A stretch of 64,000 nucleotides of DNA from an uncultured Chloroflexia bacterium. GTDB lineage: Bacteria; Chloroflexota; Limnocylindria; Limnocylindrales; CSP1-4. This document shows positions 21,294 through 29,992 of this stretch, piece by piece. The notes below the pieces were generated by a model. The model did not search any database, was not told the origin of the DNA, and saw nothing but the letters and a program-made list of their open reading frames with translations. The stretch's first letter is position 1. Every line of letters begins with the position of its first letter. The stretch lies in assembly GCA_963789865.1 (NCBI GenBank), contig CAWBMD010000001.1, forward strand, positions 129,095 through 193,094. Reading direction: 5' to 3'. A program made the translations under genes and the position numbers.

Positions 21294-21888
21294 CTAGCTC
21301 GCCGACGGGCTCGGCGAGGCGGCGCCACTGGGCGATGCCGCGGGGCTGGCGGACGGTGCGGCCGTCGGTGCGGCTGTCGCCGACGGGGCTCGCCGTCGCG
21401 GAGGGGCTGGCCGTCGGCGAAGGCTTCGGTGTCGGCGCTGGGGTGGCCGTCGGTGCAGGCGTGGCCGTGGGTGCGGGTGTCGGCGTGGCCGTGACGTTGG
21501 TCACGAAGCCGCCCTGCCCGAACAGCAGCGCAAAGGCGAAGATCGCCACGAACACGCCGATCGTCGCGATGACGAACGCCGCGGACGCGCGGTCTTCGAC
21601 CTTGACCGCCTTGTCGGACATCGATGGCTCGGCGGGCACGGTGCCCTTGGCGCGCCGATCGCGAGCGGGTGCACCCTTCGACGCTGCGGCAGCGGCCGAC
21701 GCTGGCACGGGCTCGTCGTCGTCGGCCTCGTCGTCGGCCTCGTCGGCCTCGTCGTCGTCGGGCGCGTCTGCCTCGTCGGCCGGTTCGCCGGCGGCATCGG
21801 TCTCGAGCGCTGCGTCGTCCGCAGCTTCGGTGTCGTCCGTCGCGCCATCGGGGCCCAGGGCCTCCGGGTCGCGCTCCTTGTCGGTCAT
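21294..21888 (-). CDS. Hypothetical single-TM protein with acidic N-terminus and Pro/Thr/Ser-rich C-terminal tail
   Basis: DEAD-type acidic repeats, one TM, PTATPA repeats; C-terminus frameshifted. Confidence 0.65.
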
Positions 21889-21988
21889 GCCGTGATCGGT
21901 CTCCTCTCCGCGGGCGACGCCTGCAGGCACCGCCTCACGCGGCCGTCAGTGTACCCAGCCCCGCCCGCCTCCGGCCCGTCCGCCTGCG

Positions 21989-24158
21989 TCATGCCTCCCG
22001 CAGCGCCTTGACGCCCAGCCCGGCAAGCCCGGCCGCCATCGACAGCAGGCCCCCCGCAGCGATCACCGGACCCGGGCCCGAAGATGCTCACCAGCAGCCC
22101 GCCGACCGCCATCGCCACAGACATCCCGCCGAAGACCAGCGCGAACCGGAGGCTCACCACGCGCCCCATCAGCTCGGGCGGGGTGCGCTCCTGGAACAGC
22201 GTCTGGCTGGGGATGACGAACGCCATGTTGGCGACGCCGACCCCGAACAGCAGCCCCAGGACGAGCGGGATCGAGTTCGCGAGCCCGACCAGGAACACGA
22301 ACAGGCCGAAGACGGTGTAGGCGGCGATGACCATCGGCCCCTTGCGGACACGCGAGGCCACGAGGCCGAGCGCGAAGCCGCCGATCAGGCTGCCGAGCCC
22401 GATCGCCGTCTCCATGAACGCATAGGTGGCGCGGTACTCGTCGCCCGGGGAGTTGGTGATCTCCCGGGCCAGGACGATGCTCGAGACCGTGACGATGCCC
22501 ACGGCGAACTGGCCGGCCGTACCCTGCAGGGTGTTCGCCAGCAGGACGGTCTCGTGGCGGAGGAAGGCCCAGCCGGCCTTGAGGTCGGCGCGGATCGAGG
22601 CCGGGGCCCCGTCGCCGGTCCCGTCGCCGGCGCCCGCACCATCGGCGCCCGCGCCGCCGTCCACGCTCGCCGTCCAGGTTTCCCAGCTGCGCGCCCGCCG
22701 GACGAGCGGCGGCACGACGATCGTGGACAGCAGCGCCGCAGAGGCGAGGTAGGTGGCGGCGTCGAACCAGAACGCGATCGGGAGCGAGCTCGCCAGGAAC
22801 ACCACGAACAGGCCCGCGATCGGGTAGAACAGCACATCCGCGAGCGTCTCGCCCACCCACATGGCCGAGTTGGCGGAGAGCAGGTCGTTCTCCGGCACCA
22901 GCCGCGGCAGGACGGTCACCCGGGCCGGGCGGAAGAAGATCGAGACCGTGGTGATGAGGAAGACCAGCGGATACGCCAGCCAGACGTTGATCAGGATGGC
23001 GACCGGGATCAGCAGCACCAGCGCAGCCCGCAGGATGTCCGAGACCACCATCACCTGCTTCTGGTCCCAGCGGTCCACGTAGGCGCCGGCGACCGGCGAG
23101 AACAGCAGGTTGGGGATCGTCCCGACGAGGAAGGTCAGGGCGACTGCGATGGGGGAGTCGGTGATCTCGTAGACGAACGCGCCGAGCGCGATCTGGTTCA
23201 CGCGGTCGCCGAACAGGCTGATGACCTGGCCCACCCAGAGCGCGGAGAACGACCCGTTCAGGGCCAGGCGGACGTACGGGTGGCGACGAACCCTCTGCCG
23301 GAGCGAGCGACGGCGGGCCCGCCGATGGGGGATCGCGATCCCGCCAGGCACCAGGACCGCGGCGCCCCCGCCCTCCATGGCCATCGACGTCTGGGACGGC
23401 GACGACATGCCCATGCTGCCGGCACCCATCATCAGCGGCCGCTCGAGCGCGGCGGCTCCCTCGAGGCCCGGCGTGAGACCGGTTCCGGCGCGGACGTCCA
23501 GGCCGCCGGCGTCGGGCTCGCCGTCCGGGCCCTCGTGACGTCGCGGGAGGCGGGCGGTGCCCGACAGTCCCAGGTAGCGGCCGGTCTTCGCCTCGTCGAT
23601 GGCCGCCTGCGTCTCGGCCGGCGTCCGCATCAGGGTGGCGAACAGGAAGAACGCGAGGCCGGCGGTCAGGAACACGTCCCCGATCGAGGCGACGTTCCGG
23701 ACCAGCGGCAGCGGGATCGGGATCATGTCCCCGAGCGGGACCAGCCGGAACAGGAAGTCGGGGCCCGTTCCCGCGACCTTCACATGCAGCACCGAGGTCA
23801 GCTCGGGCGGCAGGCCGGAGGCCGTCAGCGCGGGCACCCAGACCGGCATGTGCCCGGCATTCACCAGGATCACCAGCGCGTTCAGGGCAATCCCGATGAA
23901 CGCCAGCGCCAGGCCCGGGTAGGAGCGGTTCTCCCACAGCGTGAACAGCAACAGCATGTACGCGGTGGCCAGGAGCGGCAGGCGCAGCGTTTCCACGATG
24001 TCCACCCCGTACCCGAGCAGCGTTTCGGTCCCGAAGCGGAGGATCACGGCCAGGAACAGGAGCGGCAGGAAGCGCAGCCTGATGTTGGTCAGGTGCTCCA
24101 GCTTTCCGCCCAGGAGCAGGCCGAGCACGAGCCCGAGCGCGATACCGCCGATCAGCAT
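21989..24158 (-). CDS. DUF5317-MFS transporter fusion (frameshift near the C-terminus)
   Basis: N-terminal ~175 aa with GIALNALVILVNAGHMPV and LGD..SIGD (DUF5317 signature); linker; MFS with LWVGQVISLFGD, AGAYVDRWD, QERTPPELMGRV. Confidence 0.85.
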
Positions 24159-24366: not shown

Positions 24367-25731
24367 TCAGTTGGCGTCGGTCGTTGAGGGGCCGGCGGTC
24401 CGGTTGACGTGCTGCGAGATCAGCGGGATCGGCCGAGGCTGCAGGGTCCGGCCCGGGTCGGGCACGTCCTGGACCCAGTCGGTCTTCACGAAGGCGTCCA
24501 CCACCTTCGGGTCGAACTGGACCCCCGCGTACTTCCGCAGCTCGCCCAGGGCCACCTCGGGCGTGAGCGGGGTCATGCGGTAAGGACGGGCTGCCGTCAT
24601 CGCCTCGAACGCATCGGCAACGTGGAGGATCCGAGCGAGGAGCGGGATCTCGTCCCCGATGAGCCGGTCCGGGTAGCCCGAGCCGTTGAACCACTCATGG
24701 TGATGCCGGATGATCGGCACTTCGCGCGCAAGCCGCCTGACCGGGAAGATGATCTCGGCGCCCAGCACGGGGTGCGAGTTCATGATCTGCCGCTCTTCCC
24801 GGGTGAGGCGACTCGGCTTCTTCAGGACGTCGTCCGGCACGCCGATCTTGCCCACGTCGTGCAGCAGGCCGCCCCACTCCAGGGCCTCGAGGTCGCCCTC
24901 GCCGAGACGCATGACCCGCCCGATGTCGACGGAGATGTCCTTGACTCGCCTCGAGTGCATCGCGGTGGTCGGATCCCGCTTGTCCACGGCCCCAGCCAGC
25001 GCGGTGATGGTCTGCGTGAACATCTCCCGCATCTCGATGAAGTTGTGATAAGCGAGCCGCGTGGTGTAGAGGGGCAGGGCGAACAGCAGGCTGGACCACC
25101 AGACCACGGTGTACATCTGCGCCATCAGCCAGCCGAGAGGCGCCAAGCCGAGCAGGTTTGTGGTAAAGCCCCGAGGATCGCCGAGAGCAGCTGCGCGGAA
25201 CGGCTGTCCCGTTCTCAGTGCGAGACCGACAGCGGTCAGGTAGCATTGATGAGGAAGAAGAGCGCCGCGCCGGCATGGCTGCCGAGAAGTGCCGAGCGGT
25301 GTCATTCGCGCCGCGGATACGCCGGTGCGCGCATCAGAGCCCTGCGGCGATGCAGGGATGACAATTGCGGCGTGATTGGCGAGCGTGCCATACCAGGGGA
25401 TCCGGCCGCGCAGTTCGCGCAGTTCAGTCGTGCCAATCAGGGCGACCCACGCCCCCGCCGTCGGGCCGCCGAGGAACGTGGCGGCAATGAGCGGTGCGAG
25501 CGAGACACGCCACCATCGTTCCGCGGGGCATCCGCACGGGCAGCGCCGACGCGAGGAGGGTGACATACGCACCAGAAGGCGAGGCCGAGCTTGAGGCGGG
25601 TCCAATCCAAACGGCGACCCCGGCGAGGCTCATCGCGATCCCAGATCGGGAATCAAACGAGTCGTGGCAATCAGCGCAACCGCACCCACTACCACGACTC
25701 CAATGATGTAGAGCTTCAGCTTCGTCGGCAT
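24367..25731 (-). CDS. Membrane-anchored HD-GYP phosphodiesterase (multi-TM, MASE-type N-terminal sensor; sensor part frameshifted)
   Basis: ATG at 25731 after GAGG (MPTKLKLYIIGVVVVGA); LLHDVGK, HPVLG, HHHEWFNGSGYP, ADAFEAMTAARPYR. Confidence 0.9.
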
Positions 25732-25814
25732 TCGTCCTCAGCTCCGCGGTCGGTGGGACTCCAGCCCTCTTCGCCTCGGTGAACAGGACTTGCGTACTGA
25801 GGCTAGTGCTGCTC

Positions 25815-25967
25815 CTAGAAGCCCCTGAGTGACGCCCCGCCGGCCAGCGCCAAGGCGGCGACTGCGCCAAGGGCCGCCAGGATCGCTGAGGCGATCCTGA
25901 TCGCATCGGTCGATTCTCCCTGCGACCTTGACCTACCAGCCCTTGAGGATGCCATTTCCGGTGCCAC
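25815..25967 (-). CDS. 50-aa peptide precursor MAPEMASSRAGRSRSQGESTDAIRIASAILAALGAVAALALAGGASLRGF (absent from the ORF track)
   Basis: Perfect SD AAGGAGGT 7 nt before GTG; open frame to TAG; charged N-region, ~18-aa hydrophobic core, GGA plus short tail; first gene behind the riboswitch. Confidence 0.8.
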   Translation of the reverse strand: MAPEMASSRAGRSRSQGESTDAIRIASAILAALGAVAALALAGGASLRGF

Positions 25968-26003
25968 GCTCGCTACCTCCTTGCGGCCTCCGTGTCCGCA
26001 AGG

Positions 26004-26040
26004 AACACGAAAACCGACCTGACTCGAAAGTCGGTCGGTT
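26004..26040 (-). terminator. Intrinsic terminator (riboswitch expression platform)
   Basis: AACCGACC-GACT-TTCG-AGTC-A-GGTCGGTT followed by TTCGTGTT; its 5' arm is the 3' end of the aptamer. Confidence 0.8.
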
Positions 26041-26116
26041 GCACTATTCGCTCCGCCTCCACCCTAAGTGCCCAATTCAGGTGGTGGCATCAGCGCGTCC
26101 GAGCGTTTCCTTGACT
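26029..26116 (-). promoter_or_regulatory. c-di-GMP-II (class II) riboswitch-like aptamer
   Basis: GGAAAC..TGATG-CCACCACCT-GAATTGGGCACTT-AGGGTGG..TAGTGCAACCGACC: matches the class II core as I recall it (AAUUGGGCACUU / AGUGCAACCGACC), with a CCACC/GGTGG pseudoknot; lies upstream of an HD-GYP gene. Confidence 0.82.
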
Positions 26117-26147
26117 GCACAGTACGTAAGTACTAGTGCAGGGCCGG

Positions 26148-26177
26148 ACTATAGGGAGCCCTGTCCACACCGGTCAA
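26148..26177 (-). promoter_or_regulatory. sigma70-type promoter for the riboswitch-peptide-HD-GYP operon
   Basis: TTGACC-N18-TATAGT, followed by a 5' hairpin (TGCACTAGTAC/GTACTGTGCA) and the aptamer. Confidence 0.7.
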
Positions 26178-26463
26178 TACGCAACCCTACCTATGCCCAC
26201 TAGGCATGATGGCCCCTTCGGGCTCAGCTGGGAGCCATTCAGGTCAGGAGCGTCATCACCACGGCCCGGTGTCGGGCCCCGTCGGTCTCGTGCCGGCGAT
26301 CCCACCACGAGAGGAGTAAGACTTCGTCGCTCGCGCCACCGGGATCGACGGCCGCAACTCCCTTTGGCCGCGGCCAGCGCTGTGACAGTCCTTGGTGTGC
26401 GACGGGCGCTCAACTGCAGCAATGGCTCTCGGTTTGGGCCTTCGAAGGGATAGGACCCAGCTC

Positions 26464-29400
26464 TTACAGATCCTCGATCCTTGGGGGTTCCAGACCCAAT
26501 TGATCGCGAAGCACGGACGCGTAGTGCGCATACTGCTCAGCCGCTGCGGCCGGGGCGCCGAGCAGTCGATACAGACGAACGACCTGAGCCTCGATTTGAT
26601 CAGCCTCAGGGTCGATCAGGAGGGCTTGCTGACCGACCCACAGCCTCCAGCGCAGGTCGGACCCCTGTCGATCGCCCACAATCGCGCTTTCGACCTCGCC
26701 AAGGTACCGAGCGTGAAGGTTGTCGCGATAACTGGATGCCCAATCCTCGTACGGAAAGTCGGACGCAAAGCGCCCGCGGTAGTTCGCGACCAACTCCTCC
26801 ATCAAGGCAGGCGTAGCGGGGCGCGCGTTGAGGAGTATCTGGCAGCGCCAACTGCGGCATGAGATGAGCTCCGAGTCGAGCCAGATGACCTCGCTGTCGA
26901 AGTGCACGTATTCAGGCGACACTCCAGCTCGATACTCCGAATCAATGACCCGTCTGAGGAAGTAGATGGTTTGATGGATCGAGTTGCTGCCCTGTTCCGG
27001 ATCTAGTTCTGGCCATAGGGCATCCATCACCCGGTCCGGCGTGGCGGCTCCATTCGGCTGGCTCGCGAGAAATGCCAGGAGGGCGAGCACTTTGCGCCGT
27101 ATGCCGCGCCCGTCAACGAGTCGGTCGCCGAGGATGATCGAAATGGGCCCGAGGTCCTCGACCATGGCTCGCGGTGCAAGCCGCCGCGCCAGTTCTCCAC
27201 CCCAGTTGCGAGTCGATCGCCGACCAAGGCGCCCGTATTCACGCAAAGTCTGAATGTCCGCCGACTCCCCGATGAGCTCGAGCAGCGCCGCGGCGTGGTC
27301 GGATCGCCCGGGTTGGATGGCGCCCCGGAGATCATTCCTGAGCGGGCCGCGCCAGCGATGCGGTGATCCTTTGGCAGCACGAATTACGACATTAAGTGCC
27401 TGCTCAGACATCTCGTTGAGGCTTCCGGCGATCTCCGATGCGAATACGCCTAGAAAGGCATCAACCTGAGGCGTCCAAGACTCGATTATCCTCGAGGCTT
27501 GGACGGGATCAGTTCCAAGCCCGCGCAGCAGGGATGCGAGGCGTCCCTCAACGGGCGACCTTTGCTCCGCGGCAACTTCCTCGGCTTTCGAAACCTCGGC
27601 CACGAACTTGTGCACGGCGCCCGTCGCGAGGTATGAGCGGGCCTTTGTGAGGTGCCATCGGAAGGTTGCCCCGACCTCCAGCGACTGAGTCGGGGCGTCC
27701 GGCAGCCGATCCAAGATCTCGCCGCGGAGCCGCGGGTCTTTCTCGAGCCACAGGTCGAGGACTCTCCAGTGCAGCTCCCAGTCCGCTGGCAGGGTCTCGC
27801 GACGCACGCTCGAGAGGATCCGGTTTGGCAAATCCTGTGGGCCAAACCATGCCGCGAGGCTGGCTGCCTCGAGCACTGCCTCAGCTTGGCCTTCGGGGTG
27901 CGTGGTGCCCAGGGCAAAATCGAGGATCACCTGAGCGCGGGTCCAACGGCCGAGATGCGCCTCCGCACGCGCCTGCACGAGTCGAACTGAGACAAGTTCG
28001 TAGCCTTGCGACGAGCGGGCGAGCAAGTGTTCTGCATCGCCCGCGAGCCGAAGCGCCTCCGTGTCTCGGTCAAGGAGCACTAGTACCTGCGCCAAGTTCA
28101 GACTCGTGATCGCCGCGTGGTGCCAGTGTGCCTGCTTGCGCTGGGCTGTCAGCAGTCGCTCAAGCTGGTGGGCCAGGGCCGGGAGACTGCCGGTGCCGGA
28201 TCCGCCGAGAATCGCAACGTAGGCGCTTGCCAGTTCCCGATCTCGTCCACTAGTACTCTCCGCCAGCGCCCTGTGAGCGTAGACGAGGGCTTCCTCATAC
28301 TGGCGAGCACCGAGCGAAATTGTCGCAGCGTTCTGTAGTGCGATGGATATGCAGTCGGGGCGCAGTATCTCGGCCGACCGGACGGCCGCGGCGGCTGCTT
28401 CTCGAGCCTCGATGGCCGCCCCTACCTGCAGCAGCAGCCGTGACCGGAGAACCTCCCCGACCACCGCGACCTCGTCGGTGCCAGCGAGCAGGTCGGCAGC
28501 CGCCCGGTACTGACCACTGCCCAGGACCTGACTGAGAGCGCGCTGAATGACTTCGCCAGCTAGGTTGGGCTCGCAAGCCTCCCGGTAATGGTGAGCGGAG
28601 AGTCGCCACGACACGAGCGCGAGCGAGGCCCCAATGGCTAGATGCTTGTCACGGATCCATGCGGTCCCAACCTCTCGCTCGGAGGCGGGCAAGTAGGTAC
28701 TCTTGGACGAGCGGCACAAAACGTCGCCCGCCCTCGATGTCGGATCCGACGAGAAGGCCCAAATCGTCGGCGGCGCGAATGAGCCGGACGCAATCGTCTC
28801 TGCTTCCCGCGCCGAGCATCGACGCAGTCTCGGGCTCAATACACTCGAGGATCGAAGCCTTGATCAAGAAGTCCGACAGGGGTAGAGGAACGTGATCGAG
28901 GACTTCCTCGGTTAGGTAGTCCCTGAGTTCGCCAGCCGCGCCCGATAGGCTCCTGACGAGTCCTCGAGTCTCGTTTGCACCCCGGCCTTCCAGGCTCGTT
29001 TGGACCAGCGAGAGGAGGGCGGGCCAGCCCTGCGTGCGGTCGATCAGGTCCGTGACGACGTCCGGGTCGAGTGGCTGGTGGTAGGCGTCGCGGAACAGGC
29101 GCTCGGCCTCGGGGACGGTGAAGCACAGAGCGTCACCGTCGATCCTGGAGACCGCGCCGCGCGACCGCATCCGGCCCAGCGGGAGGGACGGCGTCATGCG
29201 GGATGCGAGGACCATCGAGAACCCGGGTCCGGTCCGCTCGAGAAGCGCACGCATGATTGGCTCGGTCTCGGGGCTGCCATCGACGCTGTGGTAGTCGTCG
29301 AACAGCAGGCTCAGCCCGTCCGGGAGAGATGAGGCGAGCTCGCTCATCTCTCGCGCGACGCTCATGGTCAGCTCGTCACGCGTCGGTCCACCCGGTCCGA

Positions 29401-29992
29401 GGGCGAGCAGCAGGTCATAGGTCTCGGGCGCAAACCCCGGATCGATCTCGCGGCCCGTGGCCACCAGGTGCCGGATGAAGGCAAGCCAGTCACGGTCATC
29501 GGGCTCCAGCCGGTACCACGCCGTCGCGCGACGAGTGTGGCGGGCCCAGTCGGCGAGCATCGTGGTCTTCCCGAAGCCAGCCTCTGCAATGACGAGTGCG
29601 AGCCGCCCGCCGACCGCTCCGTCCAGCCAGCCGTTGAGGCGCTCACGCGACAGGACGTCGTGCCGCAGGAGCGGCCGGTGGATCTTGACCGGCTGGATCG
29701 GCAGCGGGTTCATGCCGATCCGCCCGAGCGGACCCGCGAGCAGGATCGAACTGGCCGTCCCCGGCCCGACCGCGACCAGCGCATGCCCCTCGTGCCCAGT
29801 GGTCGACGGTCTCGGCCGGGATCTCCTGCCGCTGACGGTGCCGTCTGACGATGCGAACGATACAGAGTCTTCCGCGACGTCAAGGGCGTCCTGCGCCGAC
29901 GCGCCGGCCTGGCTCATGGCGGCCGAGGGCGTTCGGGAGGTCGCGGCCCGGTGGCGATCCTGCTTGCCGGTGATCGATGGCATGCCCGGCAT
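26464..29992 (-). CDS. Large MalT-like STAND regulator: P-loop NTPase + TPR region + winged helix + BTAD (frameshifted ~28650-28840; start uncertain)
   Basis: KIHRPLLR..RERL, AEAGFGKT, LLFDDYH, TQGWPA, DYLTEEVL; C-terminal LLAFL..LWPE..YFLRR and YRGRF..YEDW..ALLIDP (BTAD). Confidence 0.85.

Follow-up and report, generated by a model that had tools for sequence, protein, structure and literature searches.

The stretch of DNA analysed here (the window, 64,000 nucleotides) belongs to a metagenome-assembled genome (MAG) of an uncultured Limnocylindria bacterium (2.48 Mb in 9 contigs, ~70% G+C, estimated completeness 51%). On its minus strand lies an operon whose leader contains, in order, a promoter, a small palindrome, an aptamer of the class II cyclic di-GMP (c-di-GMP) riboswitch family and a terminator-like hairpin. 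In related genomes this leader is followed by two micro-open reading frames (micro-ORFs), a structured spacer and the gene of a membrane HD-GYP protein. Judged by its sequence, the element is a canonical c-di-GMP-II riboswitch aptamer in the leader of a conserved Limnocylindria operon. An earlier note, made from the letters of the window alone, had proposed a c-di-GMP-II-like ON switch with an atypical 5' half at this place; the strings it quoted are present in the window and read on the minus strand.

The Rfam model RF01786 (c-di-GMP-II) matches 26109..26026 of the minus strand with 61.6 bits, above the cut-off of 53.5 (E 2.8e-11), and a covariance-model search of the whole genome returned the same score for the window copy. 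The alignment is full length, the 84-nt RNA (26026..26109) covering model positions 1-84 of 84. It is the sole match at or above the gathering score in the window in a Rfam 15 scan, a result well outside chance, and clan competition preferred RF01786 to the variant-family models. The earlier note had suggested just such a covariance-model search, and its outcome bears out the proposed aptamer. All conserved core and internal-loop letters (GGA, UGA, GGAG, UGGGCAC and GUGCAACCG) agree with the consensus of the family, the core strings being located at ~26076..26065 (AATTGGGCACTT) and ~26046..26033 (TAGTGCAACCGACC). According to the structure line of the model, P1 joins 26109..26099 to 26034..26026, P2 joins 26097..26095 to 26051..26049 and P3 joins GCCACCAC (26088..26081) to GUGGAGGC (26062..26055). 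P3 is a nested stem, and the reading of its CCACC/GGTGG as a pseudoknot had to be given up. A candidate for the pseudoknot is GCAC(U) in the P3 loop (26071..26067) with (A)GUGC (26045..26041). The two strands are complementary and invariant in all 19 species of the genus whose leaders were aligned (the window and 18 of the 19 fetched relatives' loci, L006-L024, the truncated locus L020 being omitted; mean identity 84%), and hence they are uninformative on covariation. Four copies of the c-di-GMP-II-GAG variant elsewhere in the same genome have a complement in other letters (CGCC/GGCG) at a roughly corresponding place, which would fit a pseudoknot. We take the internal loop with GGA, UGA and GGAG to be the kink-turn of class II. 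A review ascribes a kink-turn to the class II c-di-GMP riboswitch (PMC9495366).

The 5' half of the aptamer aligns to model positions 1-29 with zero insertions or deletions and with posterior probabilities that are mostly '*'. The GGA-CGC-GCUGAU of the window corresponds to GGA-ggC-gaUGAa of the model, which makes GGACGC the canonical register, and the single irregularity of this half is the middle of P1, a 3-nt internal loop ('CGC', vvv in the structure line). The 5' half is thus not atypical. The suggestion that its sequence hinted at an altered ligand specificity is likewise not supported, the fit being ungapped and the score over the curated threshold.

Scanning and folding of the leader identified an intrinsic-terminator-like hairpin at 26004..26039 (ACCGAC(C)GACT, loop TTCG, AGTC(AG)GTCGGT, tract TTTTCGTGTT). 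The arms of this hairpin are ACCGACCGACT (26039..26029) and AGTCAGGTCGGT (26024..26013), and the tract TTTTCGTGTT occupies 26013..26004; in the RNA, ACCGACCGACU pairs with AGUCAGGUCGGU around a UUCG loop, after which comes UUUUCGUGUU. A consensus terminator scan located the site at 26036..26012 plus tail, one being found where 0.5 were expected from shuffles. The left arm and loop of the hairpin coincide with the ACCG core and the P1 3' strand of the aptamer over a common stretch (26039..26026), and the two folds are therefore mutually exclusive. The terminator hairpin alone has a calculated energy of -16.7 kcal/mol, and the leader folds at -41.7 kcal/mol with the terminator versus -29.5 kcal/mol with P1 enforced. 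Since the terminator fold is the lower in energy, termination would be the default state and the ligand would have to rescue read-through. This sharing of a strand between aptamer and terminator is the predicted layout of a transcriptional ON switch. ON logic is described as usual for class II c-di-GMP riboswitches in the same review (PMC9495366). On this point the scan, the fold energies and the conservation described below uphold the earlier note, which had seen the common 3' end, the exclusive folds and the ON layout. Contigs from three RNA libraries of two studies extend from the aptamer interior through the terminator into the first micro-ORF (X11, 25933-26084; X12, 25951-26066; X17, 25956-26107), a weak hint of read-through transcripts. 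The public sequencing runs with any of the stretch hold only 0.11-0.14 of its sampled words, and the uncovered parts carry no meaning. Just 3' of the terminator there is a second small hairpin (CGTGTTC...GGACACG, 25991..26009, minus strand) of 7 pairs, 98.5% paired, with one pair changed on both sides among the 19 species. The minimum-energy fold of the window copy also contains an alternative stem of CCTTGCGG (26003..25996) with CCGCAAGG (25986..25979) that covers part of the Shine-Dalgarno sequence of the first micro-ORF. As a general mechanism the window-specific stem CCUUGCGG/CCGCAAGG was dropped, as it is not conserved in relatives.

Across the 19 species the leader is almost invariant. 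Counting 19 nested and 5 pseudoknot pairs, 97.3% of the aptamer pair cells are standard pairs, versus 31-46% when the partners are slid, and two P3 pairs changed on both sides. In the terminator, 10 of the 10 pairs are 100% paired in 19/19 species and 9 of them never vary, and in a set of 60 loci its outer stem and T-run recur in nearly all, with variation in the upper stem and loop. Because aptamer and terminator are nearly invariant within the genus, the support from covariation is modest. RF01786 scored over its cut-off in 27 of 61 related genomes. At E<=0.001 it was confined to the genus of the window, being present in 31 of the 36 other genus genomes and absent from all 24 genomes of the sister family with small genomes. 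When the Chloroflexota were sampled evenly, 26 of 151 genomes had a match over the cut-off (25 of 150 without the unpublished genome G204), and the host taxon is therefore not unusual for the class; a literature search for c-di-GMP-II riboswitches in Chloroflexi found nothing.

The leader also contains a complementarity that could make the switch dual-acting or mainly translational. The 5' strand of P1, ACGCUCG (26106..26100), can pair with CGAGCGU (25972..25966), which comprises the last 5 nt before the start codon of the first micro-ORF and the first 2 nt of that codon. Without ligand, the start codon would be masked on transcripts that escape termination; with ligand, P1 would take ACGCUCG and the start would be freed, so that control would be exerted on translation in addition to, or in place of, termination. 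The minimum-energy fold of the 186-nt leader does pair these strands, a 7-bp duplex (-13 kcal/mol) is available in 28 of 42 distinct leader types, and the 'CGC' that is unpaired within P1 becomes paired in it. In one type (L056) both strands are changed and the pairing is kept (ATATCG/CGATAT), and three others keep a weaker pairing. However, the complementarity is gone in ~10 of the 42 types, including L012 and L023, where both strands are changed without compensation; in most species both strands are invariant and give no information either way, and the terminator is better conserved than this duplex. The conservation result being mixed, we keep a translational layer as a possible but rather doubtful rival and have not adopted it.

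Leaders of orthologous operons in sister genera bear on the same question. They have no U-tract after the aptamer and carry a Shine-Dalgarno sequence within ~20 nt of it, an arrangement that speaks for translational control. We found such diverged leaders at 16 loci (L054, L055, L058-L061, L063, L068, L069, L072, L075, L080, L088 and L095-L097; ~1950-2130 of each full-length locus). They form a coherent diverged aptamer that a relaxed search with RF01786 recognized at 28-41 bits in 7 of 8 loci; a gathering-threshold Rfam scan gave 0 matches on 20 HD-GYP loci without the strict core. Their core reads ACCC or ACCU in place of ACCG, and they also depart from the consensus at GGAG and UGA. The sister-genus leaders may represent a translational variant class or one with an altered ligand.

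Downstream of the leader, the relatives' loci define two micro-ORFs. The first, an upstream ORF (uORF) of 10 codons, has a Shine-Dalgarno sequence AAGGAGG (25982..25976), a GTG start at 25967 and a TAG stop at 25935..25933 on the minus strand. Its consensus in relatives is M-x-P-x-x-x-x-K-[GPS]-W-stop. A 9- or 10-codon uORF ending in K-x-W-stop was found in 46 of 59 usable loci, 8 further loci end in K-G-F or K-G-Y, the frame is broken in four, and one locus (L043) carries three copies of the motif. The 39 distinct decapeptides all have M1, K8 and W10, and 33 of them have P3. Synonymous variation is seen in the codons for Pro and Gly and in the stop codon, which argues that the peptide is under selection. 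The second micro-ORF (Shine-Dalgarno-like GGGAGAA 25920..25914, ATG 25906, stop 25817..25815, minus strand) encodes in relatives 29 amino acids, MKDRLMRLLAALSAVAALALA-GGASL(K/R)GF, with a signal-peptide-like front; all 30 of the 30 aligned sequences have its GGA and its final F. Searches of Pfam and NCBIfam with the second micro-ORF gave no match at E up to 1, and neither peptide is assigned to a known family. The earlier note had placed peptide and phosphodiesterase genes downstream of the switch: the HD-GYP gene is there on the same strand, but the single peptide resolves into two micro-ORFs in the relatives, fused in the window by indels.

The C-terminal tails of the two peptides are alike and co-vary within loci. 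SVKGW is paired with SVKGW (both ORFs of L031), TVKGF with TVKGF (both of L042), TLKGF with TLKGF and SIKGF with SIKGF, and of the 6 distinct pairs with the rarer I or V at position -4 of the second ORF, 5 have that residue in the uORF as well. The uORF motif can also be triplicated in frame, as ITKGW x3 in the uORF region of L043 and as PERINKPWS x3 in L061 (L061:2078-2170), which suggests that the short C-terminal motif is a functional unit. Between the second micro-ORF and the HD-GYP gene, RNAalifold of 20 sequences delineated a structured spacer (25736..25802, minus strand) in which CCTCAGT (25802..25796) pairs with (A/G)CTGAGG (25742..25736). In the RNA, this CCUCAGU/ACUGAGG helix buries the GAGG of the HD-GYP Shine-Dalgarno sequence, and its 5' strand lies a few bases past the stop of the second micro-ORF, a position that suggests translational coupling. 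The 7-pair helix is kept in 18-20 of the 20 sequences, G-U variants included; it shows 0 double-sided changes in its 7 pairs, the case for it being one of conservation.

From these features we derive a bolder proposal, in which the riboswitch would gate a new kind of c-di-GMP-controlled peptide module and, in parallel, the sister-genus aptamers would form a new variant class with another ligand. The module would consist of two peptides with a common hydrophobic-K/R-G/P-aromatic C-terminus: a decapeptide of the cytoplasm and a 29-mer that is exported or anchored in the membrane. Either a single partner, for example the membrane sensor domain of the HD-GYP protein or a C-terminal-peptide binder, would read both tails, and the peptides would tune the phosphodiesterase; or the common tail would pause the ribosome at the stop codon and so relay translation along the operon. 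As a joint claim we consider this unlikely. When the 29-mer was modelled in a complex with the first 245 residues of the HD-GYP protein, in a prediction run without controls, the scores were 0.17 and 0.13 against a mark of 0.32, which speaks neither for nor against binding.

The HD-GYP gene occupies 24367..25731 of the minus strand, starts with MPTKLKLYIIGVV and matches Pfam HD_5 (PF13487) at 8.9e-39. The intact ortholog at L025 has 453 amino acids, with a multi-pass membrane N-terminus and a C-terminal HD-GYP domain. The N-terminal domain of the ortholog bears a weak, sub-threshold resemblance to MASE9 (2.7e-4). The C-terminal 170 residues align with the solved structures 5z7c (9.5e-33) and 4mcw (2.7e-26), the HD, HHE and GYP motifs being conserved; the HD_5 residues kept in this alignment are HSrRV, HDvGK, HP, HHE, GsGYP and ADafEA. 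We infer that the protein is a c-di-GMP phosphodiesterase. The next ORF after the HD-GYP gene (24158..21885, minus strand) combines DUF5317 (5.1e-25) and MFS_1 in one 757-amino-acid frame.

Upstream of the aptamer, a scan identified a sigma-70-type promoter, TTGACC-18 nt-TATAGT (26148..26177, minus strand), with 10 of 12 matches, one site being found where 0.1 were expected; its -10 hexamer is conserved in the 19-leader alignment. Between promoter and aptamer lies a palindrome or 5' hairpin (GCAC-TA-GTAC-TTAC-GTAC-TG-TGC, 26117..26139, minus strand) that belongs to the minimum-energy fold of the leader. Its arms are conserved around a variable 4-nt centre, the inner 4 pairs being invariant in 19/19 species and the outer 4 being 92% paired, and it may serve as an operator or as a hairpin of the leader. 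The promoter spacer of sister genera contains a similar TAGTAC…GTAC motif. Directly 5' of the -35 hexamer is a box, CATAGGTAGGGTTGCGTA (26178..26195, minus strand), near-invariant by eye in 20 upstream stretches. It is a candidate binding site of the neighbouring regulator with winged helix-turn-helix and BTAD domains. This upstream neighbour (26464..29992, minus strand) is a large protein with AAA_16, winged helix and BTAD, its gene possibly split by a frameshift at ~28839/28649. Inspected by eye, the loci of relatives also have a coding region upstream of the promoter whose end is similar.

These features can be combined in a simple scheme. Transcription would begin at the TTGACC/TATAGT promoter. 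Without ligand, ACCGACCGACU would pair with AGUCAGGUCGGU, and the hairpin and U-tract would halt RNA polymerase near 26005. Binding of c-di-GMP would keep ACCGACCGACU in the aptamer core and P1, block the terminator and let transcription continue. The read-through RNA would encode the 10-codon uORF, the 29-amino-acid signal-peptide-like micro-ORF and the membrane HD-GYP phosphodiesterase. Translation would probably pass along the operon by coupling, since the ribosome-binding site of the HD-GYP gene lies in a helix that starts just past the stop of the second micro-ORF. High c-di-GMP would thereby open an operon for an enzyme that degrades c-di-GMP, making negative feedback, or homeostasis, plausible. 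The genome has 9 GGDEF, 3 EAL and 2 HD_5 matches and can therefore make and degrade the messenger.

Taken as a whole, this account of a canonical c-di-GMP-II ON switch, acting by anti-termination with read-through to the micro-ORFs and the phosphodiesterase and with negative feedback, appears to us quite probable. Several observations weigh against it. The window copy has an A at a well-conserved G of the model in 'AGU', P3 contains an A-A mismatch (shared by 7 of the 19 species), and the U-tract of the terminator is short (UUUU, then CGUGUU). The covariation is thin, its two double-sided changes being reached by 44 of 500 shuffles. The RNA-library contigs are compatible with DNA carry-over and show no starts, ends or strand. 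Among solved structures, the best match to the enzyme is that of a 3'3'-cyclic GMP-AMP (3'3'-cGAMP)-specific HD-GYP protein (5z7c). Finally, the window copy has broken reading frames in both micro-ORFs and in the N-terminal half of the HD-GYP gene.

If these frame breaks were real, the operon would be decaying in this strain, and the locus would be a remnant with an intact riboswitch, pseudogenes downstream and no present function. The uORF has 2 extra bases at ~25950..25949, loses its frame past the TAG and runs on as a 50-amino-acid ORF (25967..25815) that fuses both micro-ORFs. The ATG of the second micro-ORF is 1 base out of frame with its conserved part (shift at ~25898). Comparison of the HD-GYP frame with the L025 ortholog by tblastn and pairwise alignment disclosed clustered 1-nt indels (25646..25185, minus strand) and an in-frame TGA (25632..25630) within the first ~180 codons. 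However, the 2 extra bases are missing from a DNA contig and from an RNA-library contig that is otherwise identical to the window (25933..26084, 0 mismatches), and without them the uORF reads MAPEMALKGW*, identical to that of L025. Three other loci with frame-broken uORFs (L034, L036 and L039) come from MAGs of the same 'MFD' naming series, which we take to be long-read assemblies. In the HD-GYP gene the N-terminal indels occur in frame-restoring sets and the catalytic half is free of them, and the source genome is itself a MAG of 51% completeness in 9 contigs. Given the near-identical contigs that lack the extra bases and the broken uORFs in the same MAG series, the indels of the window are probably assembly errors, and a decaying operon is very unlikely.

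The weakest alternative is that the aptamer senses another ligand, such as 3'3'-cGAMP or another dinucleotide: the A in 'AGU', departures from the model at three loop positions 5' of UGGGCAC, the cGAMP specificity of the nearest solved relative of the controlled enzyme, the variant families in the Rfam clan and the four GAG copies in the genome can be cited for it, but we give it hardly any credence, as the score is above the curated cut-off, the 5' half is ungapped, GGA, UGA, UGGGCAC, GGAG and GUGCAACCG all match, RF01786 prevails in clan competition and the 'AGU' position is polymorphic in the genus (G in 16 and A in 3 of 19 members), the A-bearing L012 and L014 scoring 65.6 and 65.0 bits. 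To our knowledge, a different ligand has not been demonstrated for any class-II variant.

As a riboswitch, then, the canonical c-di-GMP-II element of the window adds a further example, with the customary ON architecture, to a curated class that is common in this phylum. It serves as a pointer to a tightly conserved, c-di-GMP-responsive operon in an abundant but uncultured lineage of soil and peat, and the predicted circuit is a simple homeostatic loop, c-di-GMP inducing the phosphodiesterase that would degrade it. Novelty may lie less in the riboswitch of the window than in the co-varying micro-ORFs without known family and in the sister-genus aptamers. The micro-ORFs, the helix that hides the ribosome-binding site and the sister-genus variants could bring to light a new level of c-di-GMP signalling based on peptides, or a variant with a new ligand.

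The class II c-di-GMP riboswitch was reportedly described by Lee et al. in 2010, and its structure by Smith et al. in 2011. The window element resembles that class (RF01786) in its P1-P2-P3 architecture, the GGA/UGA/GGAG internal loop, the UGGGCAC loop, the GUGCAACCG core and the ON logic. It differs in its 70%-GC Limnocylindria host, in the 3-nt loop of P1, the A-A of P3 and the A in 'AGU', and in not being fused to a group I ribozyme. The GAG variant (RF03169) is a member of the same clan with an identical set of helices. Its four copies in the same genome, all outside the window, lie at C1:123008-123091, C7:79912-79996, C5:147726-147809 and C7:103299-103383 (L002-L005 of genome G000) and score 61.9-75.0 bits on their own model. 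In contrast to the window element, with its GUGCAACCG and GCAC/GUGC, they read UGGCGAGACCG and CGCC/GGCG, and their scores with RF01786 are no higher than 28.8-41.6 bits. Downstream of them lie the gene of an Acyl_transf_3 membrane protein and three ORFs for secreted or lipoprotein-like products without Pfam family, and no phosphodiesterase gene. A literature search aimed at this variant returned only unrelated matches.

Outside this clan, class I switches of Clostridioides difficile offer a parallel. According to their description (PMC13724677), premature termination likewise controls genes of very small membrane-associated proteins. Those switches are OFF switches, c-di-GMP acting as repressor, and their proteins are unrelated and act on sporulation; the window element is of class II, has an ON layout and places its peptides in one operon with an HD-GYP enzyme. 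As for the enzyme, it aligns with PmGH (4mcw) and V-cGAP3 (5z7c) over its C-terminal 170 residues, with the HD, HHE and GYP motifs in common, and it is set apart from both by its multi-pass membrane N-terminal domain.

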